A stretch of 64,000 nt of DNA from Eledone cirrhosa. Taxonomy: Eukaryota. Every line of letters starts with the position of its first letter. Positions within the stretch are counted from its first letter, which is position 1. Below, piece by piece: positions 16-54,800 of the stretch. The stretch lies in assembly GCA_964016885.1 (NCBI GenBank), contig OZ024742.1:221154001-221218000 (forward strand). The letters run 5' to 3'. The notes beneath the pieces were generated by a model. That model worked only from the letters and a program-made list of their open reading frames with translations, was not told where the DNA came from and made no database searches. The translations under genes and the position numbers were made by a program.

Positions 16-140
16 TTGAGTTCGAAGAATAAGTTACTCAACAATAAAATCGAAAGATCAATTTATTGTAACCATAGACTCAAAGAGAAGTTTTCGCACT
101 ACAAATCGAACGCTAACCTCTTACTACCAACTGACAAACT
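16..140 (+). mobile_element. possible 3' end of a Penelope-like element ORF (decayed)
   Basis: The peptide LLNNKIERSIYCNHRLKEKF resembles the LLNxxxE...CxH..K(F) tail after the GIY-YIG domain of Penelope-like elements. A pyrimidine-rich tract follows. Confidence 0.3.
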
Positions 141-5024: not shown

Positions 5025-5200
5025 TCATTCATCATCAGCATCATTTAACGTCCATTTTCCACGCTTGCATGGGTAGGACGCGCTGTCCCTTTGTGAAAGA
5101 TCAGGTCAGGGACTGTGATTTTCTCACACAGAACTGATTTTGGCTTGGTTTGCATGGCTGGATGCCCTTCCTAATGCCAACCAGATGTACAGTGTAGATT
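5025..5200 (-). mobile_element. 3' part of a SINE-like element with an (ATG)n tail that seeds the 48-bp array
   Basis: CATCAT-TTAACGTCCATTTTCCACGCTTGC...GGCTGGATGCCCTTCCTAATGCCAACC, homologous to 20230-20470 and, inverted, to 24370-24518. Confidence 0.7.
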
Positions 5201-8200: not shown

Positions 8201-9270
8201 TGACCACTTTACAGTGTGGACTGGATGCTTTTTGTCATGACACCTACATGAACACTTTACAGTGTGTACTGGGTGCTCTTTCTTGTGACACCTACATGAC
8301 CACATTACAGTGTGGACTGGGTGCTTTTTGTCATGACACCTACACAACCACTTCACAGTGTGGACTGGGTGCTTTTTATCGTGACACCTACATGACCACT
8401 TTACAGTGTGGATTGGGTGCTTTTTGTCGTGACATCTACATGACCACTTTACAGTGTGGACTGGATGCTTTTTGTCATGACACCTACATGACCACTTTAC
8501 AGTGTGTACTGGGTGCTCTTTCTTGTGACACCTACATGACCACTTTACAGTGTGGACTGGATGCTTTTTGTCATGACACCTACATGAACACTTTACAGTG
8601 TGGATTGGGTGCTTTTTGTCGTGACATCTACATGACCACTTTACAGTGTGGACGAGGTGCTTTTTGTTGTGAACCTACATGACCACTTTACAGTGTGGAC
8701 TGGGTGCCTTTTATCGTGACACCTGTATAATCACTTTACAGTGTGGACTGGGTGCTTTTTGTCATGACACCTACACAACCACTTCACAGTGTGGATTGGG
8801 TGCTTTTTATCATGACACCTACATGACCACTTTACAGTGTGGATTGGGTGCTTTTTATCGTGACACCTACATGACCATTTTACAGTGTGGACTGGGTGCT
8901 TTTTCTTGTGACACCTACATGACTACTTTACAGTGTGGACTAGATGCTTTTTGTCGTGACACCTACATGATCACGTTACAGTGTGGACGAGGTGCTTTTT
9001 GTTGTGACACCTACATGACCACTTTACAGTGTGGACTGGGTGCTTTTTGTTGTGACACCTACGTCACCACTTTACAGTGTGGACTGGGTGCTTTTTGTTG
9101 TGACACCTACGTCACCACTTTACAGTGTGGACTGGGTGCTTTTTGTTGTGACACCTACATGACCACTTTACAGTGTGGACTGGGTGCTTTTTGTCCTGAC
9201 ACCTACACGACCACTATGCAGTGTGGACTGGGTACCTTTTGTCGTGACACCTACACGACCACTTTACAGT
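5190..9270. repeat. 48-bp minisatellite array (about 85 copies)
   Basis: Unit GTGTGGACTGGGTGCTTTTTGTCGTGACACCTACATGACCACTTTACA, with higher-order periods of 240 and 719 bp visible. Confidence 0.97.
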
Positions 9271-9382
9271 GAGTTGTGACACCAAAGCTATGTAACATAT
9301 CTACAACTTCATTTCAGTTTAATTTATTTATACTTGTGACACAGAAGCTATATAACATGTCTGTAACCTTATGTCAATTTAA

Positions 9383-14795: not shown

Positions 14796-17700
14796 ATGCT
14801 GGGCCACACAAAGTGGGTAGCTATCAGTTTTGCGTGCCGCGTACACCAGGATGTGTCAGGGAATGCAATGCAGAAAAAACGTCGCGTCGATGTTTCCAGG
14901 GCACGTAAGGGCGTTCATAGCCGGTGGAGATGCTGCACCAAATATATCCTGAAGCAGACGGTAGCGGGCATTCTTGCAATTTCAAGGATGAATTCTGTAG
15001 CTGTAGCAGTTCCCCGTCATCTTGTTGATCAGCTGAAATCTGCTGGAGATCGATAGTGGCAGTGGTGTGGATTGCATTAAGCTCCATGTGCGACAGGGCA
15101 TCAGCTGCTGAGCTGGTTGCGCCTTTAACGTGCCAAATGTCGGTTGTGTACTGGGAAATGAAGTCTAGATGTCAGACTTCCCTGGGTGAATGATGATCAG
15201 GCTTGGCGTTGAATGCATACACTAGCGGTTTGTGGTCAGTGTATATGGAGAACACGCGACCTTCTAGCATGTGTCGAAAATGTTTGACAGCAAGATATGC
15301 TGCCAATAATTCTCGACCGAATGTACTATACTTAATCTCGGCGGGTTTTAAGCGCTTGGAGAAAAAGGATACAAGTTGCCAAATACCGTGAGTGAGTTGT
15401 TGAAGCACGCCTCCAACTCCGGAATCCGATGCATCAGCCAATACACACATTGGGGCATCAGGGTTGGGGTAACTCAGCATTGTAGCCTCAGATAACATCT
15501 TCAATTCAGCGAAAGCGGTACGTTCTTTTTCGCTGAGATTGATGTTTGCGTTTTTGCTTGTTCACTGTACAGCAAATCCGTGAACGGTTGAGCTGTCTCT
15601 GCACAGTGAGGTATGAACCTTCGATAGAAGTTCACCAGGCCAAGAAATTCTCGCAGTTTGCGGAGAGATGTGGGTGGTGGAAAATCCACGATAGTTTTAA
15701 CTTTCTCCTGAAGTGGACGAATGCCATCTTTATCTATGATGTGTCCGAGAAAATGAAGGGACACAATGCTGAACTCGCACTTGCTGGGGTTGATGACGAT
15801 ACTATAATCTCGTAGACGTTGGAATAGCAAGTGCAGGTGCCTCTCATGTTCTTCATCGGAGCTGCTGGCCACGAGTAAGTCGTCGATGTATGCATATACG
15901 AAAGGCAGACCTCTGGTGACTATCGATGAAGCATTGGAATGCCTGCGCTACGTTGCAAAAACCGAAAGGCATACGCAGGAATTCGAACATTCCAAAGGGT
16001 GTTGTGACAGTGGTCTTCGGAATATCTGTGGGTTCTACAGGGATTTGATTATAAGCTTGCACAAGATCGATTTTGGAAAATATGCGAGCTCCGTGCAGCG
16101 AGCTAGAGAAGTCCAGTAGATGAGGCATTGGATATGAGTCAGGCACGATGCAGTTGTTCAGTGCTCAGTAGTCACCACAGATTCGCCAGTCGTTCCATGA
16201 CTTCTTAGGGACACAGTGTATGGGTGAGGATCAGTTGCTGCTGGACGGGCGTATTATTTCGAGGTCCAGCATGTGTTGAAATTACCGTTTCACAGACTTA
16301 AGACTGTCTGGTAGTAGCCTTCGAGGTCAGGCAGCGGCAGGTAGGCCGTGAGTTTTGATGTAATGGGTGACGCCGTGTTTTATAGGGCAGGTGTTAAATA
16401 CTGGTCGAGCTACATTTTGGTATTCTTTGAGTGTAGAGCTGTACCGGGTTGTCGTTGATGATTGTAAAATAACTGGACTGACTGTGGCTGTCCAAGCGGC
16501 TATGCCACGCTCAGTGAGACCAGTGGTGTCGTCAACGAGTCGTTGATGTTTTAGATCCACTAGGAGAAAGAAGTGATGAAGAAAATCAGCTCCTAAAATA
16601 GGGGTCGGCATCTTAGCTGCAACGAATACCCACTGGAAGGTGCAGCGTGGTCCTAAATTCAGTGTCAGGGTCTGCTCTCCGTAGGTTGGAATTGGTGATT
16701 GATTCACTGCTTGGAGTCAGACTGGTGTTTCTTTCTTGTTGCTAGGGGTGCAGGAAACTGGCATGATGCTGACTTCAGCACTGGTATCGACCAGAAAGCG
16801 CGTGCTTGTTACACGATCGGGGAGGAAAAACAGGCGACCTTGGATGTTAGGGCCAGAAATGTTCATCGCATTTAAGTTCCTAGCTGTGTCGTTTCCCTGG
16901 TTAGATGTCGGCACAAACGAACAGGGAGGGCTGCACTTGTGCACCCGCCTTCCGAATGTACGGTGGTACCAACACATTGCTGGTGAATGACAGGATGCAC
17001 TCGGACTTGTGGAGCGACGAGTTCGACTACTATCCGGTACATAGAAGGGTTACCCAGGGACAGGGCCTGAATTTGTTGCGTCAGGGCCTGTATTTGTGAT
17101 GCTTGCTGTGACAGTAAAGAATGGAAATCATGCACCTCTGTGGCACTGGAGGACTGAAGGAAAGGATTGGTGGGAGGAATGGCTGGCGTCACATTCGCTA
17201 AGGTTGAGTGCGAATGTGGTACTTCCGTGATTTTATCCGCCAGCTCAGTGAGTTCCTCGATGGAGATGGATTCTCTGGTAGACGCTAGAACAACTTGTGT
17301 GGTAGAAGGTAAACGCTGGAGGAAGAGTTGTTTAAAAATTTCATCTGGGAGGGTATATTCTTCCAGAAGCTGCTTCATTCGCCGTAGGAGTTGAGTTGGC
17401 TTTTTATCTCCTAATTCTTCAGCTATAAGGAGCTGGTGTAGGCACTTTTGCTACGACTCCGATGTCCTCTTAATTAGATTTGCTTTGAATCTGTCATCTG
17501 ACAAAGAGCCGGGTGGTGCCAAAATCAGGTCTTGGACAACGTTCATGATCTCCGTAGACAACGAACCAATGACGCGAGTTAAACGAGCTGCCTCGCTAAC
17601 AATCCGGTTCGATGCAAACTGAGCTTCTATATGTGCGAACCTTAGGACTGGGTCGTGTACCCAGAATGGTGGTATTCTCAACGTAATTGCTGCTTGAATT

Positions 17701-17835
17701 GCCATATCTATAGTGGATGAGTCGTCGTGTGTTAGAGGCGTGAAGTTTTGCAATGAAGCGAAGAATGTGATTCGCAAGCGTCGACAGTTAAAGTGAAGGC
17801 TGTGTTACTTTAGTTCGAGGTCAACATTATATAGT
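14796..17835 (-). mobile_element. decayed Ty3/Gypsy retrotransposon internal region (gag, protease, RT, RNase H, truncated integrase)
   Basis: Gag LRIPPFW..DP..F...EAQF and knuckle CWYH..FG....C..PC; protease FLVDTSAEVS; RT FSKIDL..AYNQIPV...[15 protein letters not shown]; RNase H DASDSGVGGVLQQ...ELLAAY...YTDHKPL; start of the integrase Zn-finger HSLTHPG. It has many stops and frameshifts, a PBS-like TGTTGACCTCGA and no LTR pair. Confidence 0.95.
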
Positions 17836-27384: not shown

Positions 27385-28815
27385 TTAAACAGAGTCTCTC
27401 TAAGGGTGAAGTACCACACAGTGGAAATCAGCCACAATCATTCCTATATTTATGAAAGGTAAGAGGGCAGATCCAGCTAACTATAGACCGGTATCTCTGA
27501 CATCTGTTATATCAAAAGTGATGGAAAAGGTAATATCAGAAGACATCATGGAACACTTGAAGAACAATGCCTTAATGTGCCCTGATCAACATGGCTTCGC
27601 CTGTGGGAAATCTACAACGACCAATTTACTTGAAGTACTGGATTTATGGACAGAAGCTCTAAGTCATAATCTGTCGGTTGATGTTATCTTTCTAGGCTAT
27701 GCAAAAGTGTTTGACAAGGTTCCTCATGAACGGCTGCTGAAACAGACAAAAACTTTTGGAATCAAAAACAATATACTGAAATTGATGGGAAATTTCTTTA
27801 CATATGGAAACAACGTGTTTCAGTCAACACCACATTTTCAGAATGGGCGGAAGACAGGAGTGGTGTACGACAGGGTACAGTCCTGAGTCCCCCGCTGTTC
27901 TCGCTTTTTGTCAATGATATCCTAGCATTACTAGAGAGTTCTATCTTGATGTTTGCTGATGATACAAAGATATATCAAGCAATAGCAGATCTACAAGAGG
28001 CTCACTAGACTAACTTGCAAAATGATCTCAACCAGCTTCAATTGTGGTCCAACTGCATACAAATGAAATTCTACCCAGAAAAATGCAAAGTAATGCATGT
28101 TGGCAATCTTGGGCACATGTATACAATGACAAAGGAAGATACTACAACTCACACACTTCTTCAGGTCAAAGAAGAAAAAGACTTGGGAGTTATCATTGAC
28201 CATGGCCTAACATTCAGCAGTCACCTACAAGCACAAGTCAACAAGGCAAATAGAACTCTGGATGCTCTGAAACACACCTTCTTTGTACTGGAAAAACATC
28301 CTTCACACTCCTGTATAAAAGCCTGATACATCCACACCTTGAGTATGCCTCCATTATATGGGCACTCAAGTTAAAGAGAGACAACAACATTATTGAAAAT
28401 GTTCAGCGAAGAGCAACATGCCCCGTCCAGGGGCTCTCTTCACTACCCTACAATGAACGTCTTCAGGCTTTGGGAGTCCTGATGCTAGAGTATAAGGCAG
28501 AGGGCAGACATCATACAAGCTTTTAAAATACTAAATGAGTTCAATAAAGTACAGTACACTAGAAGGTATCCAATCTGCAGCAATGCACTGTTCAGAGTGG
28601 CACTCAGCAGGACTACACAAGGACACAACCTGAAGCTCTAGGTGCAGCACCGACCAAGTCCTAGGAACCACTTCTTTTCTGCACGTGTGATAAATCACTG
28701 GAACAACCTCAAATAAGAAACAGTTGACTCACCCTCAGTCAACATTTTAAAGTCAAAGCTCGAGAAGGAGTGGACCAACCACCTTCACAAGTTTAACTAT
28801 TGCTTCTCGTATTGA
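27385..28815 (+). mobile_element. 5'-truncated, frameshifted CR1-clade LINE reverse transcriptase
   Basis: NYRPVSLTSVISKVMEK, QHGF..GKSTTTNLL, AKVFDKVPHERLL, MFADDTKIY, KCKVMH and EKDLGV, spread over several frames. Confidence 0.93.
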
Positions 28816-29955: not shown

Positions 29956-29962
29956 TATATAT
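29956..29962 (+). promoter_or_regulatory. TATA-like element at -29 of the type A RNA gene
   Basis: TATATAT begins 29 nt upstream of the predicted +1, the same spacing as in the type B gene. Confidence 0.5.
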
Positions 29963-29984: not shown

Positions 29985-30076
29985 GTGTGCGGGCTTAGCC
30001 GTGTGGTTACTTCGATACATAATACTGAAATTATTTCTCCAATCTGCGACCACTGGCGCCATTCCGCGCACTTTTT
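29985..30076 (+). ncRNA. vault RNA-like Pol III gene, type A (copy 1)
   Basis: Sequence GTGTGCGGG-CTTAGCCGTGTGGTTACTTCGA...CGACCACTGGCGCCAT-TCCGCGCAC-TTTTT. The A-box-like TAGCCGTGTGG is followed by TTACTTCG, as in human vtRNA (TTAGCTCAGCGGTTACTTCG...GAGACCCGCGGGCGCT, recalled). There is a 9-bp terminal stem, inner helices GCC/GGC and GTGGTT/GACCAC, a T5 terminator and TATATAT at -29. Confidence 0.8.
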
Positions 30077-30418
30077 GGCCTTGTTTTACATAGTGACTTT
30101 AAAGATTTAACCTTTTTTGTTTGTTTGTATCCCTACATAACATCTAGCTATATTTGAGAGAAATTTGTTTACTATATCGCCAGCTGATGGAGACTCATTA
30201 CATAGTGACTTTTCTCTATGACTCATTAACCTACGTATCAACAAGTCCTGCACATCTAATCGAATTATTTCCCTATTACAAATTTTATGCGTCATTTGAA
30301 AAAAAATTATCTTCTCTCAATATACTTGTTCTTATGAAAAAGAAAAGAAAAGAAAAGTTCTTTTGAATACAATTTGAAATCATTTGTGATACTATAACAT
30401 AATATAACATTTATACAG

Positions 30419-30426
30419 TATATATA
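30419..30426 (+). promoter_or_regulatory. TATA-like element at -29 of the type B RNA gene
   Basis: TATATATA begins 29 nt upstream of the predicted +1 and is retained in all B and C copies. Confidence 0.5.
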
Positions 30427-30447
30427 GTTAATTTGTTAATACCAGTT

Positions 30448-30550
30448 GGGTGTGGGAGCTTAGCCGTGTGGTTACTTCGTTCATACCTAATATCTAAGCA
30501 GATGTTTTCAAACCTAACGACCACTGGCGCTGTCTCGTACATTCTTTTTT
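30448..30550 (+). ncRNA. vault RNA-like Pol III gene, type B (copy 1)
   Basis: Sequence GGGTGTGGGAG-CTTAGCCGTGTGGTTACTTCG...TTTCAAACC (B-box-like)...CGACCACTGGCGCTGT-CTCGTACATTC-T6. The terminal stem differs in sequence from type A but still pairs. TATATATA lies at -29. Confidence 0.8.
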
Positions 30551-32190
30551 GTCCCTTAAGCGCTGTCTCGTACATTCATTTTTGTCCCTTAAGCACCATC
30601 GTCACAAATTATTTTATATTTTATTTTCAGCAACTCACCACTTCAATATTTTCTGTGTATCGATAAGGCGTCAGATAACGATTTGCGGCATAGTTATCTC
30701 CCTTTACGTTTTGAGTTCAAATCCAGACTAGGTTAAGCTTTACCTTTCATCCTTACAGAGTCGATACAATAAAATATCGGTAACTCACTGGCGTCGATTT
30801 AATCGATTTCGCCACAAAATTGTTGGTCTTGTACCTAAATCAGAAACCATTATTATTTTAAAATGAGTTCAAATCAGCCAAGATCAGCTTTGCTTTTCAT
30901 CCTTCCGGGACCAATTAAGTAAAGTACAAGTTATGAACTGGTTTGACATTATCGAACTTCCCCTTCAAATTACAGGCCTTGTGTCTAAACTAGAAGGGGC
31001 GCAGCCCAAACACTGCCCTGCCCTAGTGACTTCATTTTTGCAATTCTACTGTTTGTTTGTGTGTGTCTGTATGTGGTAATGGTGTTCTGCTCTTGATTGT
31101 AAGATCATGAGTTCAATTCCCTGTGATATGTGTCCTTGTACAAAATACTTTATTTCACGCTGCTCCACCTGGCAAAATCAAGTTGTACTTGTCATTCAAA
31201 GAGCCCCATCACACTGAATCTCCCTGAGAGCTATGTTAATAGCACACGTGTCCATGGATTACTCAGCTACTTGCATGTTAATTTCATCTGCAGGCTGTTC
31301 CGTTGGTCGAACAGTTGGAGCACCCATCGTCGGAACCGACAGAGGCCCAACAGCAGCAATAGTGCATGTGTGTGTGTGTGTGTGTAATGCCTGGCTCTTT
31401 ATTGATTTGTTACTTTTGTAAACCATAAACATATGATTTGATACACACCATATGCTTGTAGCTTGAACGTGACAAAACGAAGGGAGCCATCAATATTATA
31501 AAAATAGTCATATTCTTGGGATAAATCCAAATGTGATACCACTAAGTAATTTCATTTGGCCTTGATAGACTAGCTAGCCCTGTGCCACCAAACATGATGG
31601 CTAATTGTAGTATTTTGTTTAATAATTCTTTTATTATAAACTTTTTTGTGTGGATAGACTATCCACAACTAACATAGATAACCAAGATAATATATTTGTG
31701 TGAATATCTATACATTTATGTATATGTATGGTCCTGAGTTGTAGGGATGCCGTATTGATATACTACATTTTTTGAACATTTGAAGCCTACCGGAACCCAT
31801 CCCTCTCCAGGACTGAGTACAGTAGATTTATTCAAGAGCGAGGAAGAATTGACACAAGTACTAGACTGGTACTTCTTTTACCGACCTCAAAAGGATGAAA
31901 CTCGGCGCGATTTGAACTCAGAGAACAGAAAGCCGGAACAAATTCCATAAAGCTTCCTATCCGACGTTCTGATGACTCTGCCAATTCGCTGCTTTTATCT
32001 ATACATTTATATGTATGAGTATAAAATATAAACACACAAACACATATACACTCATACAAATATAGATATATTCACACAAACACATATTCACACGCATACA
32101 TTCACACAAGTGATATAAACACATAAAAAATAACATCATCATCATCATCATCATCGTTTAACATCTATCTTCCACGCTAGCAGAAAGCCG

Positions 32191-33151
32191 GTAATATCAC
32201 TTGAGAGTATTGGGTGCATCTTATTGTGGCACCAGTAATATCACTTTACAGAGTATTGAGAGCATCTTATTGTGGCACCAGTAATATCACTTTACAGAGG
32301 ATTGGATGCATCTTATTGTGGCACCCATAATATCACTTTATAAGAGTATTGCGAGCATTTAATTGTGGCACCAGTAATATCACTTTACAGAGTATTGGGA
32401 GCATCTTATTGTGGCACCAGTAATATCACTTTACAGAGTATTGGGAGCATCTTATTATGGCACCAGTAATATCACTCTACAGAGTATTGGGAGCATCTTA
32501 TTATGGCACCAGTAATATCACTCTACAGAGTATTGGGAGCATCTTATTATGGCACCAGTAATATCACTTTAAGAGAGTATTGGGTGCATCTTATTGTGGC
32601 ACCAGCAATATCACTTTACGAGAGTATTGGGTGCATCCTATTGTGGCACCCATAATATCACTTTACAGAGTATTGGGTGCATCTTATTGTGGCACCCATA
32701 ATATCACTTTACAGAGTATTGGGTGCATCTTATTGTGGTACCAGCAATATCACTTTACAAGAGTATTGGGTGCATCTTATTGTGGCACCCATAATATCAC
32801 TTTACAGAGTATTGGGTGCATCTTATTGTGGCACCAGTAATATCACTTTACAAGAGTATTGGGTGCATCTTATTGTGGCACCCATAATATCACTTTACAA
32901 GAGTATTGGGAGCATCTTATTGTGGCACCAGCAATATCACTTTACAGAGTATTGGGTGCATCTTATTGTGGCACCAGTAATATCACTTTACGAGAGTATT
33001 GGGTGCATCTTATTGTGGCACCAGTAATATCACTTAACGAGTCTATCAGGTGCATCTTATTGTGGCACCAGTAATATCACTTTACGAGAGTATTGGGTGC
33101 ATCTTATTGTGGCACCAGTAATATCACTTTACAAGAGTATTGGGTGCATCT
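32191..33151. repeat. 46-bp satellite array (about 21 copies)
   Basis: Unit GAGTATTGGGTGCATCTTATTGTGGCACCAGTAATATCACTTTACA. Confidence 0.97.
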
Positions 33152-33958: not shown

Positions 33959-34050
33959 GTGTGCGGGCTTAGCCGTGTGGTTACTTCGATACATAATACT
34001 GAAATTATTTCTCCAATCTGCGACCACTGGCGCCATTCCGCGCACTTTTT
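33959..34050 (+). ncRNA. vault RNA-like gene, type A (copy 2)
   Basis: Same sequence as 29985-30076, in the second copy of the unit. Confidence 0.8.
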
Positions 34051-34412: not shown

Positions 34413-34515
34413 GGGTGTGGGAGCTTAGCCGTGTGGTTACTTCGTTCATACCTAATATCTAAGCAGATGTATTCAAGCCCAACGACCACTGGCGCTGTCT
34501 CGTACATTCTTTTTT
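34413..34515 (+). ncRNA. vault RNA-like gene, type B (copy 2)
   Basis: Near-identical to 30448-30550, with substitutions confined to the variable loop (GTATTCAAGCCC). Confidence 0.8.
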
Positions 34516-35146
34516 GTCCCTTAAGCGCTGTCTCGTACATTTATTTTTGTCCCTTAAGCACTATCGTCACAAATTATTTTATTTTCAGCAACTCACCACT
34601 TCAATATTTTCTGTGTATCGATAAAGCGTCGGATAACGATTTGCGGCATAGTTATCTCCCTTTACGTTTTGAGTTCAAATCCAGTCTAGGTTAAGCTTTA
34701 CCTTTCATCCTTACAGAGTCGATAAAATAAAATATCGGTAACTCACTGGCGTCGATTTAATCGATTTCCCCACAAAATTGTTGGTCTTGTAAAGTATAGT
34801 TAACATGTCTATGTATAATTGATAAAAGAAAAAATATATAACAAAACAATGGACTAAGGGAGATAATTAGGAAGGTTTAGTCTCTTGTCAAATTATGGGA
34901 GTGAAGTTATAAATACGAAATTGATGCGCCTTGATCTTAATTTTTATTCGAATTTATTTACCTTTATCTACCTGTCTATGTCAGGGCTTCCTAAAGTGAT
35001 TTGATATCAGCCTCCAAAACAGAGATCGATAAGCTTACCCAGGGAATCAATTGAACTTATTGGCAAAAACCTGACATTTCTATCAGAAATAAAAATATAT
35101 AAAATAATATAAAATCTAACTTATATAGGTTTCTGATTTATATATA

Positions 35147-37002: not shown

Positions 37003-37722
37003 TTACACAGAATACAGGGTGCATCTTATTGTGCAACCAGCAATATCACTTTTTGAGACTATTGGGAGCATCTTATTGTGGATCCAGTAATATTACTTTA
37101 CAGAGTATTAGGTGCATCTTATTGTGGCACCAGTAATATCACTTTACAGATTATTGGGTGCATTTTATTGTGGCACCAGTAATACCACTTTACGAAAGTA
37201 TTGGGTGCATCTTATTGTGGCACCAGTAATATCACTTTACAGAGTATTGGGTGCATCTTATTGTGGCACCAGTAATATCACTTTACAGAGTATTGCGTTC
37301 ATCTTATTGTGGCACCAGTAATATCACTTTACAAGAGTATTGGGTGCATCTTATTGTGGCACCAGTAATATCACTTTACAGAGTATTGGGTGCATCTTAT
37401 TGTGGCACCAGCAATATCACTTTACGAGAGTATTGAGTGCATCTTATTGTGGCACCCATAATATCACTTTACAGAGTATTGCGTTCATCTTATTGTGGTA
37501 CCAGCAATATCACTTTACGAGAGTATTGTGTGCATCTTAATGTGGCACCAGTAATATCACTTTACAGAGTATTGGGTGCATCTTATTGTGGCACCAGCAA
37601 TATCACTTTACAGAGTATTGTGTGCATCTTATTGTGGCACCCATAATATCACTTTACAGAGTATTGCGTTCATCTTATTGTGACACCAGCAATATCACTT
37701 TACGAGAGTATTGGGTGCATCT
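37003..37722. repeat. 46-bp satellite array (about 15 copies) growing out of a SINE body
   Basis: Preceded by TTGGATGCCCTTTTAAATGCTAACCACCTTACA, and the first monomers are the most diverged. Confidence 0.95.
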
Positions 37723-39861: not shown

Positions 39862-42800
39862 GTAATATCACTTTAGAGTATTGGGTGCATCTTATTGTGG
39901 CACCAGTAATATCACTTTACACGAGTATTGGGTGCATCTTATTGTGGCACCAGTAATATCACTTAAGAGTATTGGGTGCATCTTATTGTGGGCACCAGTA
40001 ATATCACTTTACAGAGTATTGTGTGCATCTTATTGTGGCACCAGTAATATCACTTTACGAGAGTATCGGGTGCATCTTATATGTGACACCAGTAATATCA
40101 CTTTACGAGAGTATTGGGTGCATCTTATTGTGGAACCAGTAATATCACTTTACAGAGTATTGGGTGCATCTTATTGTGGCACCAGTAATATCACTTTACG
40201 AGAGTATTGGGTGCATCTTATATGTGCCACCAGTAATATCACTTTACAGACTATTAGGTGCATCTTATTGTGGCACCAGTAATATCACTTTAGAGTATTG
40301 GGTGCATCTTATTGTGGCACCAGTAATATCACTTTAGAGTATTGGGAGCATCTTATTGTGGCATCAGTAATATCACATTACAGAGTATTGGGAGCATCTT
40401 ATTGTGGCACCAGTAATATCACTTTACAGAGGATTGGGTGCATCTTATTGTGGCACCAGTAATATCACTTTAGAGTATTGGGTGCATCTTATTGTGGCAC
40501 CAGTAATATCACTTTAGAGTATTGGGTGCATCTTATTGTGGCATCAGTAATATCACTTTACAGAGTATTGGGAGCATCTTATTGTGACACCAGTAATATC
40601 ACTTTACAGAGGATTGGGTGCATCTTATTTTGATACCAGTAATATCACTTTACAGAGTATTGGGTGCATCTTATTTTGGCACCAGCAATATCACTTTACG
40701 AGAGTATTGGGTGCATCTTATTGTGGCACCAGTAATATCACTTTACGAGAGTATTGGGTGCATCTTATTGTGGCACCAGTAATATCACTTTACAGAGGAT
40801 TGGGTGCATCTTATTTTGATACCAGTAATATCACTTTACAGAGTATTGGGTGCATCTTATTTTGGCACCAGTAATATCACTTTACAGAGTATCGGGTGCA
40901 TCTTATTGTGACACCAGTAATATCACTTTACAAGAGTATTGGGTGCATCTTATATGTGACACCAGTAATATCACTTTAGAGTATTGGTTGCTTCTTATTG
41001 TGGCACCAGTAATATCACTTTACAGAGTATTGAGTGCCTCTTATTGTGGCACCAGTAATATCACTTTACAGAGGATTGGGTGCATCTTATTTTGATACCA
41101 GTAATATCACTTTACGAGAGTATTGGGTGCATCTTATTGTGGCACCAGTAATATCACTTTACAGAGTATTGGGTGCATCTTATTGTGGCACCAGTAATAT
41201 CACCTTACGAGAGTATTGGGTGCATTTATATGTGACACCAGTAATATCACTTTAGAGTATTGGTTGCTTCTTATTCTTGCACCAGTAATATCACTTTACA
41301 GAGTATTGAGTGCCTCTTATTGTGGCACCAGTAATATCACTTTACAGAGGATTGGGTGCATCTTATTTTGATACCAGTAATATCACTTTACGAGAGTCTT
41401 GGGTGCATCTTATATGTGACGCCAGTAATATCACTTTACAGAGTATTGGGTGCATCTTATTGTGGCACCAGTAATATCACTTTACAGAGTATTGGTTGCT
41501 TCTTATTTTGGCACCAGTAATATCACTTTACGAGAGTATTGGGTGCATCTTATTGTGGCACCAGCAATATCACTTTACAGAGTATTGAGTGCATCTTATT
41601 GTGGCACCAGTAATATCACTTTACAGAGTATTGGGTGCATCTTATTGTGGGACCAGTAATATCACTTTACATAGTATTGGGTGCATCTTATTTTGGCACC
41701 AGTAATATCTCTTTACAGAGTATTGAGTGCATCTTATTGTGGCACCAGTAATATCACTTTACAAGAGTATTGGGTGCATCTTATTGTGGCACCAGCAATA
41801 TCACTTTACAGAGTATTGGGTGCTTCTTATTGTGGCACCAGTAAAATCACTTAACGAGTCTATCAGGTGCATCTTATTGTGGCACCAGCAATACCACTTT
41901 ACAGAGAATTGGGTGCCTCTTATTGTGGGACCAGTAATATCATTTACAGGGGATTGGGTGCATCTTATTGTGGCACCAGTAATATCACTTTACAGGACTA
42001 TTGGGAGCATCTTATTGTGGCACCAGTAATATCACTTTACGAGACTATTGGGTGCATCTTATTGTGGCACCCATAATATCACTTTACAGAGTATTAGGTG
42101 CACCTTATTGTGGCACCAGTAATATCACTTTACAGAGTATTGGGAGCATCTTATTGTGGCATCAGTAATATCACTTTACAGAGTATTGGGTGCATCTTAT
42201 TGTGGCACCAGTAATATCACTTAACGAGTCTATCAGGTGCATCTTATTGTTGCACCAGTAATATCACTTTACAGAGTATTGGGAGCATTTTATGTTGCAC
42301 CAGCAATACCACTTTACATAGAATTGGGTGCATCTTATTGTGGCACCAGTAATATCACTTTAAGAGAGTATTGAGAGCATCTTATTTTGGCACCAGTAAT
42401 ATCACTTTACAGAGTACGAGGTGCATCTTATTGTGTCATCAGTAATATCACTTTACAGAGTATTGGGTGCATCTTATTGTGGCATCAGCAATATCACTTT
42501 ACATGACTATTGGGAGCATGTTATTGTGGGACCAGTAATATCACTTTACGAGAGTATTGGGTGCATCTTATTGTGGCACCAGTAATATCACTTTATAGAG
42601 AATCGGGTGCATCTTATTGTGGCACCAGTAATATCACTTTACAGAGGATTGGGTGCATCTTATTATGGCACCAGTAATATCACTTTACAGAGTATTGGGT
42701 GCATCTTATTGTGAAACCAGTAATATCACTCTACGAGAGTATTGGGTGCATTTTATTGTGGCACCAGTAATATCACTTTACAGAGTATTGGGTGCATCTT

Positions 42801-45800
42801 ATTGTGGCACCAGTAATATCACTTTAGAGTATTGGGAGCATCTTATTGTGGCATCAGTAATATCACTTTACAGAGTATTGGGAGCATCTTATTGTGGCAC
42901 CAGTAATATCACTTTACAGAGGATTGGGTGCATCTTATTTTGATACCAGTAATATCACTTTACAGAGTATTGGGTGCATCTTATTTTGGGACCAGCAATA
43001 TCACTTTACGAGAGTATTGGGTGCATCTTATTGTGGCACCAGTAATATCACTTTACGAGAGTATTGGGTGCATCTTATTGTGGCACCAGTAATATCACTT
43101 TACAGAGTATTGGGAGCATCTTATTTTGATACCAGTAATATCACTTTACAGAGTATTGGGAGCATCTTATTTTGGCACCAGCAATATCACTTTACAGAGT
43201 ATTGGGTGCATCTTATTGTGGCACCAGTAATATCACTTTACAGAGTATTGGGTGCATCTTCTTGTGGCACCAGTAATATCACTTTACAAGAGTATTGGGT
43301 GCATCTTATATGTGACACCAGTAATATCACTTTAGAGTATTGGTTGCTTCTTATTGTGGCACCAGTAATATCACTTTACAGAGTATTGAGTGCCTCTTAT
43401 TGTGGCACCAGTAATATCACTTTACAGAGGATTGGGTGCATCTTATTTTGATACCAGTAATATCACTTTACAGAGTATTGGGTGCATCTTATTTTGGCAC
43501 CAGCAATATCACTTTACGAGAGTATTGGGTGCATCTTATTGTGGCACCAGTAATATCACTTTACGAGAGTATTGGGTGCATCTTATTGTGGCACCAGTAA
43601 TATCACTTTACAGAGTATTGGGAGCATCTTATTTTGATACCAGTAATATCACTTTACAGAGTATTGGGAGCATCTTATTTTGGCACCAGCAATATCACTT
43701 TACAGAGTATTGGGTGCATCTTATTGTGGCACCAGTAATATCACTTTACAGAGTATTGGGTGCATCTTCTTGTGGCACCAGTAATATCACTTTACAAGAG
43801 TATTGGGTGCATCTTATATGTGACACCAGTAATATCACTTTAGAGTATTGGTTGCTTCTTCTTGTGGCACCAGTAATATCACTTTACAGAGTATTGAGTG
43901 CCTCTTATTGTGGCACCAGTAATATCACTTTACAGAGGATTGGGTCCATCTTATTTTGATACCAGTAATATCACTTTACGAGAGTATTGGGTGCATCTTA
44001 TTGTGGCACCAGTAATATCACTTTACAGAGTATTGGGTGCATCTTATTGTGGCACCAGTAATATCACTTTACGAGAGTATTGGGTGCATTTATATGTGAC
44101 ACCAGTAATATCACTTTAGAGTATTGGTTGCTTCTTATTGTCGCACCAGTAATATCACTTTACAGAGTATTGGGTGCATCTTATATGTGACACCAGTAAT
44201 ATCACTTTACAGAGTATTGGGTGCATCTTATTGTGGCACCAACAATATCACTTTACAGAGTATTGAGTGCATCTTATTGTGGCACCAGTAATATCACTTT
44301 ACAGAGTATTGGGTGCATCTTATTGTGGGACCAGTAATATCACTTTACATAGTATTGGGTGCATCTTATCTTGGCACCAGTAATATCACTTTACAGAGTA
44401 TTGAGTGCATCTTATTGTGGCACCAGTAATATCACTTTACAAGAGTATTGGGTGCATCTTAGTGTGGCACCAGCAATATCACTTTACAGAGTATTGGGTG
44501 CATCTTATTGTGGCACCAGTAAAATCACTTAACGAGTCTATCAGGTGCATCTTATTGTGGCACCAGTAATATCACTTTACAGAGTATTGGGAGCATCTTA
44601 TTGTGGCACCAGCAATACCACTTTACAGAGAATTGGGTGCCTCTTATTGTGGGACCAGTAATATCACTTTACAGGGGATTGGGTGCATCTTATTGTGGAA
44701 CCAGTAATATCACTTTACAGGACTATTGGGAGCATCTTATTGTGGCACCAGTAATATCACTTTACGAAACTATTGGGTGCATCTTATTGTGGCACCCATA
44801 ATATCACTTTACAGAGTATTAGGTGCACCTTATTGTGGCACCAGTAATATCACTTTACAGAGTATTGTGAGCATCTTATTGTGGCATCAGTAATATCACT
44901 TTACAGAGTATTGGGTACATCTTATTGTGGCACCAGCAATATCACTTTACAGGGTATTGGGTGCATCTTATTGTGGCGCCAGTAATATCTCTTAATGAGA
45001 CTATAGGGTGCATCTTATTGTGGGACCAGCAATATCACTTTACAGAGTATTGGGTGCATCTTATTGTGGCACCAGTAATATCACTTAATGAGACTATAGG
45101 GTGCATCTTATTGTGGCACCAGTAATATCACTATACAGAGTATTGGGTGCATCTTATTGTGGCATCAGTAATGCCACTTTACAGAGTATTGGGTGCATCT
45201 TATTGTGGCACCAGTAATATCCCTTTACAGAGTATAGGGTGCATCTTATTGTGTCACCAGTAATATCACTTTACGAGAGTATTGGGTGCATCTTATTGTG
45301 GCACCAGTAATATCACTTTACAGAGTATTGGGTGCATCTTATTGTGGCACCAGTAAGCTCACTTTGCAGAGTATTGGGTGCACCTTATTGTGGCACCAGC
45401 AATATCACTTTACAGAGTATTGGGTGCATCTTATTGTGGCACCAGTAATATCACTTTACAGAGTATTGGGTGCATCTTATTGTGGCACCAGTAACTTCAC
45501 TTTAGAATATTGGGTGCATCTTATTGTGGCACCAGTAATATCACTTTACAGAGGATTGGGTGCATCTTATTGTGGCACCAGCAATATCACTTTACAGAGT
45601 ATTGGGTGCATCTTATTTTGGCACCAGTAATATCACTTTACGAGAGTATTGGGAGCATCTTATTGTGGCACCAGCAATATCACTTTACAGAGTATTGGGT
45701 GCATCTTATTTTGGCACCAGTAATATCACTTTACGAGAGTATTGGGAGCATCTTATTGTGGCACCAGTAATATCACTTTACGAGAGTATTGAGTGCATCT

Positions 45801-48800
45801 TATTGTGGGACCAGTGATATCACTTTACAGAGTATTGGGTGCATCTTATTGTGGCACCAGCAATATCACTTTACAGAGTATTGGGTGCATCTTATTGTGG
45901 CACCAGTAAAATCACTTAACGAGTCTATCAGGTGCATCTTACTGTGGCACCAGTAATATCACTTTACAGAGTATTGGGAGCATCTTATTGTGGCACCAGC
46001 AATACCACTTTACAGAGAATTGGGTGCCTCTTATTGTGGGACCAGTAATATCACTTTACAGGGGATTGGGTGCATCTTATTGTGGCACCAGTAATATCAC
46101 TTTACAGGACTATTGGGAGCATCTTATTGTGGCACCAGTAATATCACTTTACGAGACTATTGGGTGCATCTTATTCTGGCACCCATAATATCACTTTACA
46201 GAGTATTAGGTGCACCTTATTGTGGTACCAGTAATATCACTTTACAGAGTATTGGGAGCATCTTATTGTGGCATCAGTAATATCACTTTACAGAGTATTG
46301 GGTGCATCTTATTGTGGCACCAGTAATATCACTTCACAGAGTATTGGGTGCATCTTATTGTGGCGCCAGTAATATCTCTTAATGAGACTATAGGGTGCAT
46401 CTTATTGTGGGACCAGCAATATCACTTTACAGAGTATTGGGTGCATCTTATTGTGGCACCAGTAATATCACTTAATGAGACTATAGGGTGCATCTTATTG
46501 TGGCACCAGTAATATCACTTTACAGAGTATTGTGTGCATCTTATTGTGGCATCAGTAATGCCACTTTACAGAGTATTGGGTGCATCTTATTGTGGCACCA
46601 GAAATATCCCTTTACAGAGTATAGGGTGCATCTTATTGTGTCACCAGTAATATCAATTTACGAGAGTATTGGGTGCATCTTATTGTGGCACCAGTAACAT
46701 CACTTTACAGAGTATTGGGTGCATCTTATTGTGGCACCAGTAAGCTCACTTTACAGAGTATTGGGTGCACCTTATTGTGGCACCAGCAATATCACTTTAC
46801 AGAGTATTGGGTGCATCTTATTGTGGCACCAGTAATATCACTTTACAGAGTATTGGGTGCATCTTATTGTGGCAACAGTAACTTCACTTTAGAATATTGG
46901 GTGCATCTTATTGTGGCACCAGTAATATCACTTTACAGAGGAATGTGGTGCATCTTATTGTGCCACCAGCAATATCACTTTACAGAGTATTGGGTGCATC
47001 TTATTTTGGCACCAGTAATATCACTTTACGAGAGTATTGGGTGCATCTTATTGTGGCACCAGCAATATCACTTTACAGAGTATTGGGTGCATCTTATTTT
47101 GGCACCAGTAATATCACTTTACGAGAGTATTGGGAGCATCTTATTGTGGCACCAGTAATATCAAATTACGAGAGTATTGAGTGCATCTTATTGTGGCACC
47201 AGTAATATCACTTTACAGAGTATTGGGTGCATCTTATTGTGGCACCAGTAATATCATTTTACGAGAGTATTGGGTGCATCTTATTGTGGCACCAGTAATA
47301 TCACTTTACAGAGTATTGGGTGCATCTTATTGTGGCACCAGTAATATCACTTTACGAGAGTATTGGGTGCATCTTATTGTGGCACCAGTAATATCCCTTC
47401 ATAGAGAATTGGGTGCATCCTATTGTGACACCAGTAATATCGCTTTACAGAGGATTGGGTGCATCTTATTGTGGCACCAGCAATATCACTTTACAGAGTA
47501 TTGGGTGCATCTTATTGTGGCACCAGTAATATCACTTTAAGAGAGTATTGAGAGCATCTTATTATGGCACCAGTAATATCACTTTACAGAGTACGAGGTG
47601 CATCTTATTGTGTCATCAGTAATATCACTTTACAGAGTATTGGGTGCATCTTATTGTGGCATCAGCAATATCACTTTACATGACTATTGGGAGCATGTTA
47701 TTGTGGCACCAGTAATATCACTTTACGAGAGTATTGGGTGCATCTTATTGTGGCACCAGTAATATCACTTTATAGAGAATCGGGTGCATCTTATTGTGGC
47801 ACCAGTAATATCACTTTACAGAGGATTGGGTGCATCTTATTATGGCACCAGTAATATCACTTTACAGAGTATTGGGTGCATCTTATTGTGGCACCAGTAA
47901 TATCACTTTACAGAGTATTGGGTGCATCTTATTGTGGCACCAGTAATATCACTTTACAGAGGATTGGGTGCCTCTAATTGTGGCACCAGTAATATCACTT
48001 TACAGAGGATTGGATGCATCTTATTGTGGCACCAGTAATATCAATTTACAGAGTATTGGGTGCCTCTAATTGTGGGACCAGTAATATCACTTTACAGAGG
48101 ATTGGGTGCATCTTATTGTGGCACCAGTAATATCACTTTACAGAGTATTGGGTGCATCTTATTGTGGCACCAGTAATATCACTTTACAGAGTATTGGGTG
48201 CATCTTCTTGTGGCACCAGTAATATCACTTTACAAGAGTATTGGGTGCATCTTATATGTGACACCAGTAATATCACTTTAGAGTATTGGTTGCTTCTTCT
48301 TGTGGCACCAGTAATATCACTTTACAGAGTATTGAGTGCCTCTTATTGTGGCACCAGTAATATCACTTTACAGAGGATTGGGTCCATCTTATTTTGATAC
48401 CAGTAATATCACTTTACGAGAGTATTGGGTGCATCTTATTGTGGCACCAGTAATATCACTTTACAGAGTATTGGGTGCATCTTATTGTGGCACCAGTAAT
48501 ATCACTTTACGAGAGTATTGGGTGCATTTATATGTGACACCAGTAATATCACTTTAGAGTATTGGTTGCTTCTTATTGTCGCACCAGTAATATCACTTTA
48601 CAGAGTATTGGGTGCATCTTATATGTGACACCAGTAATATCACTTTACAGAGTATTGGGTGCATCTTATTGTGGCACCAACAATATCACTTTACAGAGTA
48701 TTGAGTGCATCTTATTGTGGCACCAGTAATATCACTTTACAGAGTATTGGGTGCATCTTATTGTGGGACCAGTAATATCACTTTACATAGTATTGGGTGC

Positions 48801-51800
48801 ATCTTATCTTGGCACCAGTAATATCACTTTACAGAGTATTGAGTGCATCTTATTGTGGCACCAGTAATATCACTTTACAAGAGTATTGGGTGCATCTTAG
48901 TGTGGCACCAGCAATATCACTTTACAGAGTATTGGGTGCATCTTATTGTGGCACCAGTAAAATCACTTAACGAGTCTATCAGGTGCATCTTATTGTGGCA
49001 CCAGTAATATCACTTTACAGAGTATTGGGAGCATCTTATTGTGGCACCAGCAATACCACTTTACAGAGAATTGGGTGCCTCTTATTGTGGGACCAGTAAT
49101 ATCACTTTACAGGGGATTGGGTGCATCTTATTGTGGAACCAGTAATATCACTTTACAGGACTATTGGGAGCATCTTATTGTGGCACCAGTAATATCACTT
49201 TACGAAACTATTGGGTGCATCTTATTGTGGCACCCATAATATCACTTTACAGAGTATTAGGTGCACCTTATTGTGGCACCAGTAATATCACTTTACAGAG
49301 TATTGTGAGCATCTTATTGTGGCATCAGTAATATCACTTTACAGAGTATTGGGTACATCTTATTGTGGCACCAGCAATATCACTTTACAGGGTATTGGGT
49401 GCATCTTATTGTGGCGCCAGTAATATCTCTTAATGAGACTATAGGGTGCATCTTATTGTGGGACCAGCAATATCACTTTACAGAGTATTGGGTGCATCTT
49501 ATTGTGGCACCAGTAATATCACTTAATGAGACTATAGGGTGCATCTTATTGTGGCACCAGTAATATCACTTTACAGAGTATTGGGTGCATCTTATTGTGG
49601 CATCAGTAATGCCACTTTACAGAGTATTGGGTGCATCTTATTGTGGCACCAGTAATATCCCTTTACAGAGTATAGGGTGCATCTTATTGTGTCACCAGTA
49701 ATATCACTTTACGAGAGTATTGGGTGCATCTTATTGTGGCACCAGTAATATCACTTTACAGAGTATTGGGTGCATCTTATTGTGGCACCAGTAAGCTCAC
49801 TTTGCAGAGTATTGGGTGCACCTTATTGTGGCACCAGCAATATCACTTTACAGAGTATTGGGTGCATCTTATTGTGGCACCAGTAATATCACTTTACAGA
49901 GTATTGGGTGCATCTTATTGTGGCACCAGTAACTTCACTTTAGAATATTGGGTGCATCTTATTGTGGCACCAGTAATATCACTTTACAGAGGATTGGGTG
50001 CATCTTATTGTGGCACCAGCAATATCACTTTACAGAGTATTGGGTGCATCTTATTTTGGCACCAGTAATATCACTTTACGAGAGTATTGGGAGCATCTTA
50101 TTGTGGCACCAGCAATATCACTTTACAGAGTATTGGGTGCATCTTATTTTGGCACCAGTAATATCACTTTACGAGAGTATTGGGAGCATCTTATTGTGGC
50201 ACCAGTAATATCACTTTACGAGAGTATTGAGTGCATCTTATTGTGGGACCAGTGATATCACTTTACAGAGTATTGGGTGCATCTTATTGTGGCACCAGCA
50301 ATATCACTTTACAGAGTATTGGGTGCATCTTATTGTGGCACCAGTAAAATCACTTAACGAGTCTATCAGGTGCATCTTACTGTGGCACCAGTAATATCAC
50401 TTTACAGAGTATTGGGAGCATCTTATTGTGGCACCAGCAATACCACTTTACAGAGAATTGGGTGCCTCTTATTGTGGGACCAGTAATATCACTTTACAGG
50501 GGATTGGGTGCATCTTATTGTGGCACCAGTAATATCACTTTACAGGACTATTGGGAGCATCTTATTGTGGCACCAGTAATATCACTTTACGAGACTATTG
50601 GGTGCATCTTATTCTGGCACCCATAATATCACTTTACAGAGTATTAGGTGCACCTTATTGTGGTACCAGTAATATCACTTTACAGAGTATTGGGAGCATC
50701 TTATTGTGGCATCAGTAATATCACTTTACAGAGTATTGGGTGCATCTTATTGTGGCACCAGTAATATCACTTCACAGAGTATTGGGTGCATCTTATTGTG
50801 GCGCCAGTAATATCTCTTAATGAGACTATAGGGTGCATCTTATTGTGGGTCCAGCAATATCACTTTACAGAGTATTGGGTGCATCTTATTGTGGCACCAG
50901 TAATATCACTTAATGAGACTATAGGGTGCATCTTATTGTGGCACCAGTAATATCACTTTACAGAGTATTGTGTGCATCTTATTGTGGCATCAGTAATGCC
51001 ACTTTACAGAGTATTGGGTGCATCTTATTGTGGCACCAGAAATATCCCTTTACAGAGTATAGGGTGCATCTTATTGTGTCACCAGTAATATCAATTTACG
51101 AGAGTATTGGGTGCATCTTATTGTGGCACCAGTAACATCACTTTACAGAGTATTGGGTGCATCTTATTGTGGCACCAGTAAGCTCACTTTACAGAGTATT
51201 GGGTGCACCTTATTGTGGCACCAGCAATATCACTTTACAGAGTATTGGGTGCATCTTATTGTGGCACCAGTAATATCACTTTACAGAGTATTGGGTGCAT
51301 CTTATTGTGGCAACAGTAACTTCACTTTAGAATATTGGGTGCATCTTATTGTGGCACCAGTAATATCACTTTACAGAGGAATGTGGTGCATCTTATTGTG
51401 CCACCAGCAATATCACTTTACAGAGTATTGGGTGCATCTTATTTTGGCACCAGTAATATCACTTTACGAGAGTATTGGGTGCATCTTATTGTGGCACCAG
51501 CAATATCACTTTACAGAGTATTGGGTGCATCTTATTTTGGCACCAGTAATATCACTTTACGAGAGTATTGGGAGCATCTTATTGTGGCACCAGTAATATC
51601 AAATTACGAGAGTATTGAGTGCATCTTATTGTGGCACCAGTAATATCACTTTACAGAGTATTGGGTGCATCTTATTGTGGCACCAGTAATATCATTTTAC
51701 GAGAGTAATGGGTGCATCTTATTGTGGCACCAGTAATATCACTTTACAGAGTATTGGGTGCATCTTATTGTGGCACCAGTAATATCACTTTACGAGAGTA

Positions 51801-54800
51801 TTGGGTGCATCTTATTGTGGCACCAGTAATATCCCTTCATAGAGAATTGGGTGCATCCTATTGTGACACCAGTAATATCGCTTTACAGAGGATTGGGTGC
51901 ATCTTATTGTGGCACCAGCAATATCACTTTACAGAGTATTGGGTGCATCTTATTGTGGCACCAGTAATATCATTTTACGAGAGTATTGGGTGCATCTTAT
52001 TGTGGCACCAGTAATATCACTTTACAGAGTATTGGGTGCATCTTATTGTGGCACCAGTAATATCACTTTACGAGAGTATTGGGTGCATCTTATTGTGGCA
52101 CCAGTAATATCCCTTCATAGAGAATTGGGTGCATCCTATTGTGACACCAGTAATATCGCTTTACAGAGGATTGGGTGCATCTTATTGTGGCACCAGCAAT
52201 ATCACTTTACAGAGTATTGGGTGCATCTTATTGTGGCACCAGTAATATCATTTTACGAGAGTATTGGGTGCATCTTATTGTGGCACCAGTAATATCACTT
52301 TACAGAGTATTGGGTGCATCTTATTGTGGCACCAGTAATATCACTTTACGAGAGTATTGGGTGCATCTTATTGTGGCACCAGTAATATCCCTTCATAGAG
52401 AATTGGGTGCATCCTATTGTGACACCAGTAATATCGCTTTACAGAGGATTGGGTGCATCTTATTGTGGCACCAGCAATATCACTTTACAGAGTATTGGGT
52501 GCATCTTATTGTGGCACCAGTAATATCACTTTAAGAGAGTATTGAGAGCATCTTATTATGGCACCAGTAATATCACTTTACAGAGTACGAGGTGCATCTT
52601 ATTGTGTCATCAGTAATATCACTTTACAGAGTATTGGGTGCATCTTATTGTGGCATCAGCAATATCACTTTACATGACTATTGGGAGCATGTTATTGTGG
52701 CACCAGTAATATCACTTTACGAGAGTATTGGGTGCATCTTATTGTGGCACCAGTAATATCACTTTATAGAGAATCGGGTGCATCTTATTGTGGCACCAGT
52801 AATATCACTTTACAGAGGATTGGGTGCATCTTATTATGGCACCAGTAATATCACTTTACAGAGTATTGGGTGCATCTTATTGTGGCACCAGTAATATCAC
52901 TTTACAGAGTATTGGGTGCATCTTATTGTGGCACCAGTAATATCACTTTACAGAGGATTGGGTGCCTCTAATTGTGGCACCAGTAATATCACTTTACAGA
53001 GGATTGGATGCATCTTATTGTGGCACCAGTAATATCAATTTACAGAGTATTGGGTGCCTCTAATTGTGGGACCAGTAATATCACTTTACAGAGGATTGGG
53101 TGCATCTTATTGTGGCACCAGTAATATCACTTTACAGAGTATTGGGTGCATCTTATTGTGGCACCAGTAATATCACTTTACACGAGTATTGGGTGCATCT
53201 TATTGTGGGACCAGTAATATCACTTTACAGAGGATTGGGTGCATCTTATTGTGGCACCAGTAATATCACTTTACAGAGTATTGGGTGCATCTTATTGTGG
53301 CACCAGTAATATCACTTTACAGAGGATTGGATGCATCTTGTGGTGGCACCAGTAATATCACTTTACAGAGTATTGGGTGCCTCTAATTGTGGGACCAGTA
53401 ATATCACTTTACAGAGGATTGGGTGCATCTTATTGTGGCACCAGCAATATCACTTTACAGAGTATTGGGTGCATCTTATTTTGGCACCAGTAATATCACT
53501 TTACGAGAGTATTGGGTGCATCTTATTGTGGCACCAGCAATATCACTTTACAGAGTATTGGGTGCATCTTATTTTGGCACCAGTAATATCACTTTACGAG
53601 AGTATTGGGAGCATCTTATTGTGGCACCAGTAATATCACTTTACGAGAATATTGAGTGCATCTTATGGTGGCACCAGTAATATCACTTTACAGAGTATTG
53701 GGTGCATCTTATTGTGGCACCAGTAATATCACTTTACGAGAGTATTGGGTGCATCTTATTGTGGCATCAGCAATATCACTTTACAGAGTATTGAGTGCAT
53801 CTTATTGTGGCACCAGTAATATCACTTTACAGAGTATTGGGTGCATCATATTGTGGCACCAGTAATATCACTTAACGAGTCTATCAGGTGCATCTTATTG
53901 TTGCACCAGTAATATCACTTTACAGAGCATTGGGAGCATCTTATTGTTGCACCAGCAATACCACTTTACATAGAATTGGGTGCATCTTATTGTGGCACCA
54001 GTAATATCACTTTAAGAGAGTATTGAGAGCATCTTATTATGGCACCAGTAATATCACTTTACAGAGTACTAGGTGCATCTTATTGTGTCATCAGTAATAT
54101 CACTTTACAGAGTATTGGGTGCATCTTATTGTGGCACCAGCAATATCACTTTACGAGAGTATTGAGTGCATCTTATTGTGGCACCAGTAATATCACTTTA
54201 CGAGAGTATTGGGTGCATCTTATTGTGGCACCAGTAATATCACTTTATAGAGAATTGGGTGCATCCTATTGTGACACCAGTAATATCACTTTACAGAGGA
54301 TTGGGTGCATCTTATTGTGGCACCAGCAATATCACTTTACAGAGTATTGGGTGCATCTTATTTTGGCACCAGTAATATCACTTTACGAGAGTATTGGGTG
54401 CATCTTATTTTGGCACCAGTAATATCACTTTACGAGAGTATTGGGTGCATCTTATTGTGGCACCAGTAATATCACTTTATGAGAGTATTGAGTGCATCTT
54501 ATTGTGGCACCAGTAATATCACTTTACATGAGTCTTGGGTGCATCTTATTGTGGCACCAGCAATATCACTTTACAGAGTATTGAGTGCATCTTATTGTGG
54601 CACCAGTAATATCACTTTACAGAGTATTGGGTGCATCTTATTGTGGCACCAGTAATATCACTTAACGAGTCTATCAGGTGCATCTTATTGTTGCACCAGT
54701 AATATCACTTTACAGAGTATTGGGAGCATTTTATGTTGCACCAGCAATACCACTTTACATAGAATTGGGTGCATCTTATTGTGGCACCAGTAATATCACT

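Follow-up and report, generated by a model that had tools for sequence, protein, structure and literature searches.

Vault RNAs, as portrayed in the available sections of PMC7058938, show limited conservation outside the promoter boxes, have paired ends and a variable centre and occur in small clusters accompanied by pseudogenes; a part of PMC8824774 puts their length at 80–150 nt. Binding of vault RNA by TEP1 is recorded for mammals and trypanosomes (PMC7058938 and PMC12547018, both in part), the loop of human vtRNA1-1 is a protein-binding site according to an excerpt of PMC11012908, and PMC13404743 describes what vault RNAs do as a matter not yet settled, human cells included. Among invertebrates only a few examples exist, for the most part predictions. 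For the lophotrochozoans the available part of PMC8824774 gives Rfam entries from Lottia gigantea, Helobdella robusta and Macrostomum lignano, together with five putative vtRNAs of Fasciola hepatica. Literature searches that covered largely papers outside subscription, and part of PMC11855390 among them, returned no report of a cephalopod vault RNA in the text they reached, and octopus genomes annotated automatically with Rfam may already contain entries for the genes described here.

The DNA analysed is a window of 64,000 nucleotides from Eledone cirrhosa, and 154 kb around it were read. We hold with considerable confidence that two elements within it, A and B, are divergent vault RNA genes belonging to a tandem array of 15, and that Pol III likely transcribes them into RNAs of about 90–100 nt whose ends, predicted to pair as a panhandle, are likely kept paired by selection. 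In the 154 kb the array comprises 15 vault RNA genes (four of type A, four of type B and seven of type C) over about 67 kb. They sit in 11 units, mostly with a 46-bp satellite between units, and seven units lack A, all through one common deletion junction. The copies in the window all lie on the + strand: A1 (29985..30076; an 87-nt body at 29985–30071 and a T5 terminator at 30072–30076), B1 (30450..30550; a 93-nt body at 30450–30542, then TC and a T6 terminator at 30545–30550), A2 (33959..34050, the same sequence as A1), B2 (34415..34515, three loop changes from B1), C1 (38123..38224), C2 (56565..56666) and C3 (60734..60835, one inner pair of which is broken by A71T). Sequence of the A, B and C types is also present in contigs of four runs; three of these runs are one sample, which may be the source of the assembly, so they are not independent, and such contigs do not give copy number. 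The 46-bp satellite blocks (no strand assigned) lie at 32191–33151, 37017–37722, 39862–56163, 58598–60332 and 62767–64000, the last running past the end of the window. From the unit boundaries we infer that the array was amplified by unequal exchange at these blocks, which would have grown and shrunk it by birth and death, and some copies carry pair-breaking changes, as such turnover would explain. The block at 39862–56163 (16.3 kb) looks akin by eye to a 48-bp satellite at 5188–9271, a similar 48-bp repeat is found inside an MVP intron (L025:123–764) and the satellite family seems to be dispersed in the genome. The window also holds broken retroelement remnants, namely an LTR-type pol region matching reverse transcriptase (14824–17804, − strand) and a LINE-type reverse transcriptase fragment (27410–28326, + strand).

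Set beside the human vtRNA1-1/1-2/1-3 cluster and vtRNA2-1 (RF00006), in so far as these are described in the available part of PMC7058938, the locus has the same general character: RNAs of about 90–100 nt, an internal box A, the GGUUACUUCG motif, paired ends, a variable central loop, a T-run, clustered paralogues and dispersed pseudogenes. It differs from the human vault RNAs in having 15 array genes as against one to four, in the satellite between units and in box B, which is degenerate in B and C and, in A, absent from its usual position. All seven window copies score above the gathering cut-off of the Rfam Vault model (RF00006), at 36.4–43.3 bits against 34 (A1 43.3, B1 41.4, C3 36.4), that is by only 2–9 bits, and the match spans model positions 1–99, including both helices and the GGUUACUUCG motif, which is specific to vault RNAs. 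A genome-wide search with RF00006, in which 49 candidates were scored, gave 11 matches at E ≤ 0.001, all within the array, and exact matches to the motif number 17 in the whole genome. Length and T-run ending (87 nt plus T5 in A; 93 nt, TC and T6 in B) agree with the vault RNA range given above. The host appears to encode the protein partners, judged from exons: three MVP shoulder exons lie on contig C24, an adjoining exon of MVP shares 91% identity with the protein of Octopus bimaculoides and Argonauta hians (the others 88% or less among the 120 of 1474 matches listed), and TROVE exons lie on contig C4, where the named relatives of the one exon tested are TEP1. A PDB search with the TROVE exon gave no match. 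The modest scores (36–43 bits) and the degenerate box B are what one might expect if a small Pol III RNA of another kind, or the head of a SINE, matched the vault model by chance, but this we consider extremely improbable in view of the extent of the match, with GGUUACUUCG and both helices, the low copy number, the MVP and TEP1-like genes and the four 5′ halves of a fourth type described below, which have no common tail; no tRNA was found in the window either. A tRNA-derived SINE in particular was rejected, as the motif occurs in exact form just 17 times genome-wide, the window gave no tRNA call and those halves have no common sequence downstream. The A/B locus thus adds a member to a known RNA family; it is not a new kind of RNA.

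The anatomy of the genes is that of a Pol III unit. On the + strand a 22-nt block of A (29993..30014) is identical to 30458..30479 in B, and it contains a box-A-like 11-mer at +12..+22 (one mismatch to the box A consensus) with TTACTTCG directly behind it, a motif named as the lophotrochozoan vault motif in PMC8824774. A second identical block, of 13 nt (30047..30059 in A, 30518..30530 in B, + strand), supplies the 3′ strand of the inner helix. A box-B-like 9-mer with one mismatch to the box B consensus lies in the B1 loop (30506..30514, + strand); it occupies +57..65 in B1, B2 and C1, and one dispersed copy also keeps it. Against the same consensus, A lacks a box-B-like motif at the usual position, its closest match lying at +26; the Fasciola vtRNAs likewise have a weak box B (PMC8824774). 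A motif scan placed TATA-like elements on the + strand at −29 of A (29956..29962) and at −31 of B (30419..30425), the latter within a zone (−40..−11) that has no substitution among the B and C copies; 10.6% of AT-matched positions have such a motif starting at −33..−27. Pol III would transcribe each gene from +1 to the T-run, beginning at the GTGTG at +1, using the internal box A and the TATA-like element near −30 and stopping at the T-run. The 3′ end of B1 with its terminator is repeated as a 33-bp tandem duplication (30527..30594, + strand), of which C has one unit only. B2 too carries the 33-bp repeat with a second terminator (34492–34559). The duplication loosely resembles the second box B and terminator found behind human VTRNA1-1 (as given in part of PMC7058938), but is without box B. 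About 150 bp behind B1, at 30692–30800, lies a SINE-like repeat of very high copy (depth near 1e6), which holds a near-perfect box-B-like motif at about 30714–30724; this could be an extragenic B box or irrelevant to B1.

Comparison of A with B bears on the earlier note, which had taken the two as diverged paralogues conserved only in motifs and helices. Their spacing of 463 bp holds for a B start at 30448 (from 29985), and becomes 465 bp in register (29985 against 30450); the two extra 5′ G residues of B (30448–30449) lie upstream of the likely +1 and are variable among copies. Of the identical blocks that had been proposed, the 13-nt one is as described and the one put at 21 nt is in fact the 22-nt block (29993–30014 = 30458–30479). 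None of the 35 block positions differs between A and B as against 18 of the 32 aligned loop positions (P = 5e-8). The flanks are indeed dissimilar, the 200-nt stretches aligning no better than shuffles (P = 0.27 upstream, 0.85 downstream), and the loops, said to be dissimilar as well, do differ at those 18 positions but show a borderline likeness (P = 0.065). The arms differ at nine of 20 positions, on a par with the loop (P = 0.57), yet eight of nine pairs stay. Both terminal stems had been said to pair: A pairs at 9/9 positions and B at 8/9 in register, with a G·G mismatch in B that had gone unmentioned. The 9-bp terminal stem carries seven substitutions in register, and going from A to B the nine pairs change from G-C to G-U (twice), U-G to U-A, G-U to G-C, G-C to A-U and C-G to G·G, with three staying the same. 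Compensation in the strict sense, claimed for the stems as a whole, is therefore confined to one pair changed on both sides (G-C to A-U), four of the changes being one-sided and one pair being broken. The observation that type C replaces GACCAC by GACTAC is correct, and the change turns G21-C73 into G-U and keeps the pair. As to the conclusion that A and B are functional RNAs independently of the vault assignment, functional structured RNAs they very likely are, mainly because of the Rfam vault match, the Pol III gene anatomy and the dispersed copies that start at +1; the independence is weaker, with one compensatory and one broken pair. Since the 22-nt block holds box A, its conservation alone cannot tell constraint on RNA from constraint on DNA. 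The A/B split predates the dispersed copies, each of which can be assigned to a type, so that the age is a relative one; the loops change fast and loop divergence is therefore unfit for dating the split.

The predicted structure is a panhandle with two helices. In MFE and consensus folds of an alignment of nine distinct array sequences and one dispersed copy, 94.2% of cells pair, as against 36–55% when partners are slid. Fold z-scores are −3.05 for A and −2.41 for B on the + strand; B2, C1 and C3 fold weakly when taken singly (−1.57, −1.26 and −0.75). The minus strand of B gives no fold (z +0.40), which means that B pairs by virtue of G-U pairs in its sense strand, and the opposite strand of A folds as well as the sense (z −3.46). 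We considered whether A and B might be transcribed vault RNA homologues in which the blocks are kept as DNA promoter elements (box A and its neighbours) and by gene conversion, the pairing being a by-product of arms that tolerate transitions. The 5′ arm is G/U-rich and transitions therefore often keep pairing, and in simulation the probability of retaining at least eight of nine pairs after seven random substitutions is 0.013 without bias, 0.020–0.026 at 50% transitions and 0.056–0.13 at 80%, the last range favouring such a by-product; the local share of transitions is, however, merely 37/80. That box A lies inside the 22-nt block fits a promoter element, as does the inner helix, in which six of ten pairs are invariant and so give no covariation signal, but the 13-nt 3′ block is complementary to the 5′ block and distinct from the box-B-like motif (+57..65), and the G-U pairs that B needs are present only on the transcribed strand. 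In a control that ignores relatedness, 387 of 500 shuffles equalled the single pair changed on both sides, and 15 of 500 reached the percentage paired together with the covariation score. By a hand tally in which the G-C to A-U pair counts as two steps, nine of ten stem changes between gene types keep their pair compared with 10 of 22 in the dispersed copies (P = 0.024), the type-level figure arguing against a by-product and the dispersed-copy figure being in keeping with one; with the four copy-private core changes of the array included, three of which break pairs, the comparison becomes 10 of 14 against 10 of 22 (P = 0.18). Support for selection on pairing is thus modest, and A versus B alone is suggestive as a sign of structural selection. 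Taking these points together we give the promoter-element explanation only a small chance, and regard it as likely that the end-to-end pairing of A and B has been kept by selection on the RNA.

Outside the array there are 13 dispersed vault RNA copies, on contigs C1, C2 (three), C3, C4 (two), C7, C15, C18, C19, C21 and C1367. For 12 of these (L050 was excluded as it is without a 5′ end) identity to the gene is 107/132 over +1..+11 and 125/360 over −30..−1, and the longer copies end at or before the terminator. Such a pattern is expected of copies made from RNA (processed pseudogenes). The start of homology at the predicted +1 places +1 at GTGTG and, on this sequence evidence, implies past transcription of the vault RNA genes in the germline. 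In the 10 copies searched no convincing target-site duplication was seen, the matches being microsatellite or distant short ones. Three matches to the 3′ motif alone (L065–L067), without a 5′ half, were treated as chance. An A-type 5′-half copy (L036, G000:C7:2385424-2385464) sits between protocadherin genes of C7 (at 2.07 and 3.15 Mb), probably by coincidence. The seven B-type copies have decayed evenly, with 23 of 266 core sites and 23 of 227 loop sites changed (about 9–10%). Relative to an inferred source, the majority sequence of these copies, C differs at 3/53 core and 10/36 loop sites (P = 0.005), and B at 2/53 core and 4/36 loop sites (P = 0.22). Five further members of the dispersed set (L037, L057, L058, L059 and L062) have A-like arms and share a loop unlike that of A, B or C, and we refer to them as type D. 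The sole full-length D copy (L037:1501-1593; G000:C4:22848498-22848590) scores 33.9 bits; in the four D-type 5′ halves the match stops at about +49 at an A-rich tract and the flanks are unrelated. Their common end could be explained by internal priming or by a stable 5′-half RNA. No source gene of type D is present among the array genes, pointing to one that was lost or is unassembled.

Variation inside the array was counted per site over the 11 B and C genes: 12/38 in the loop, 9/11 at −10..0, 0/30 at −40..−11, 5/55 in the core and 53/694 in the distal flanks. The loop is thus about 4x and the 10 nt upstream about 11x more variable than the distal flanks (P = 4e-5 and 9e-9), the stretch concerned lying at 30440–30520 in B1, and the absence of variants from −40..−11 is not significant alone. 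The elevation of the proximal flank is seen among B copies alone (4/11, P = 5e-4), and among C copies alone nothing is elevated. The core is not depleted of variants relative to the distal flanks (P = 0.61); a lower core variation at P = 0.024 was discarded, as that value was inflated by non-homologous flanks and becomes 0.61 when only aligned spans are used. Active tRNA genes, in the available text of PMC6130373, have near-gene mutation rates 7–10 times higher with the core held by selection, and the array, with its conserved core and highly divergent inner 5′ flank, resembles them; on this reading the core would be constrained relative to a hypermutable setting. The excess of C-to-T and G-to-A changes recorded for tRNA genes in that same text is not shared, since the B-versus-C changes are not transition-rich (five of 14 between −7 and +96 by hand count), and conversion or selection on the loop is accordingly possible as the cause of its fast change. 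Equal core and distal-flank variation is also what would be seen if the array consisted of vault RNA pseudogenes in decay that had been multiplied passively along with the satellite, any signs of selection being inherited from source genes, and pair- or box-A-breaking changes in B3, B4 and two C copies, together with a T4 run only in two C copies, point the same way. Set against decay are the lack of any other intact high-scoring vault locus (all 11 of the matches at E ≤ 0.001, from the 49 candidates scored, being in the array), the tRNA-gene-like excess of variation in the loop and proximal 5′ flank and the five CpG sites, all of which are intact in the array sequences aligned (10 of the 15), as against changes at about 12 of 40 covered sites in the dispersed copies (hand count). 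We therefore think it very unlikely that the array is a set of pseudogenes.

If A, B and C are working vault RNA genes, the ends of each RNA would pair into a panhandle, and, together with TTACTTCG, the conserved helices would make a scaffold that is recognised by TEP1 and the vault particle and aids stability, a role suggested by homology to the mammalian and trypanosome vault RNAs. The central loop would be the type-specific part, free to diverge and so giving A, B, C and, among dispersed copies only, D. A bolder version, in which octopods hold an expanded and diversifying vault RNA repertoire, with a satellite-driven array of 15 genes on one scaffold, loops driven apart by positive selection into distinct riboregulators and type D lost except as retrocopies, strikes us as rather doubtful. 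Coming from a cephalopod and combining several loop types on a common scaffold with an inferred start site and dispersed copies that act as a built-in neutral control, the locus is a convenient system for asking which positions count in TEP1 binding and whether the loop types have different partners.

In its genomic setting the array is unlike the gnathostome VTRNA1 locus in not being linked to a protocadherin cluster, a link that belongs to the vertebrate locus and does not define the family. Of 255 candidates, the 150 that were scored yielded at least 121 Cadherin_2 matches in long open frames. These lie on C2, C7 and some further contigs, with none of the 121 on the array contig C3. So large a protocadherin set fits an octopod genome, the expansion of this family being known in cephalopods. 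Large clusters lie at C2:237.7-253.7 Mb, C2:331.7-339.6 Mb and C7:2.0-8.7 Mb. ZMAT2, the other gene to which the gnathostome locus is linked, was not located by a zf-U1 search, which is not specific for it. The closest likeness is to the lophotrochozoan vault RNAs, compared here by description and not by alignment: as in the accessible account of PMC8824774, box A is followed by TTACTTCG, box B is weak, there is a panhandle and the genes are clustered (four of five Fasciola genes in 133 kb). The present locus differs from these in being a cephalopod case, in an array that holds more genes at closer spacing (15 within about 67 kb) and in its record of dispersed RNA-derived copies; it stands out by how large the array is, by its retrocopies and by how fast the loop changes.
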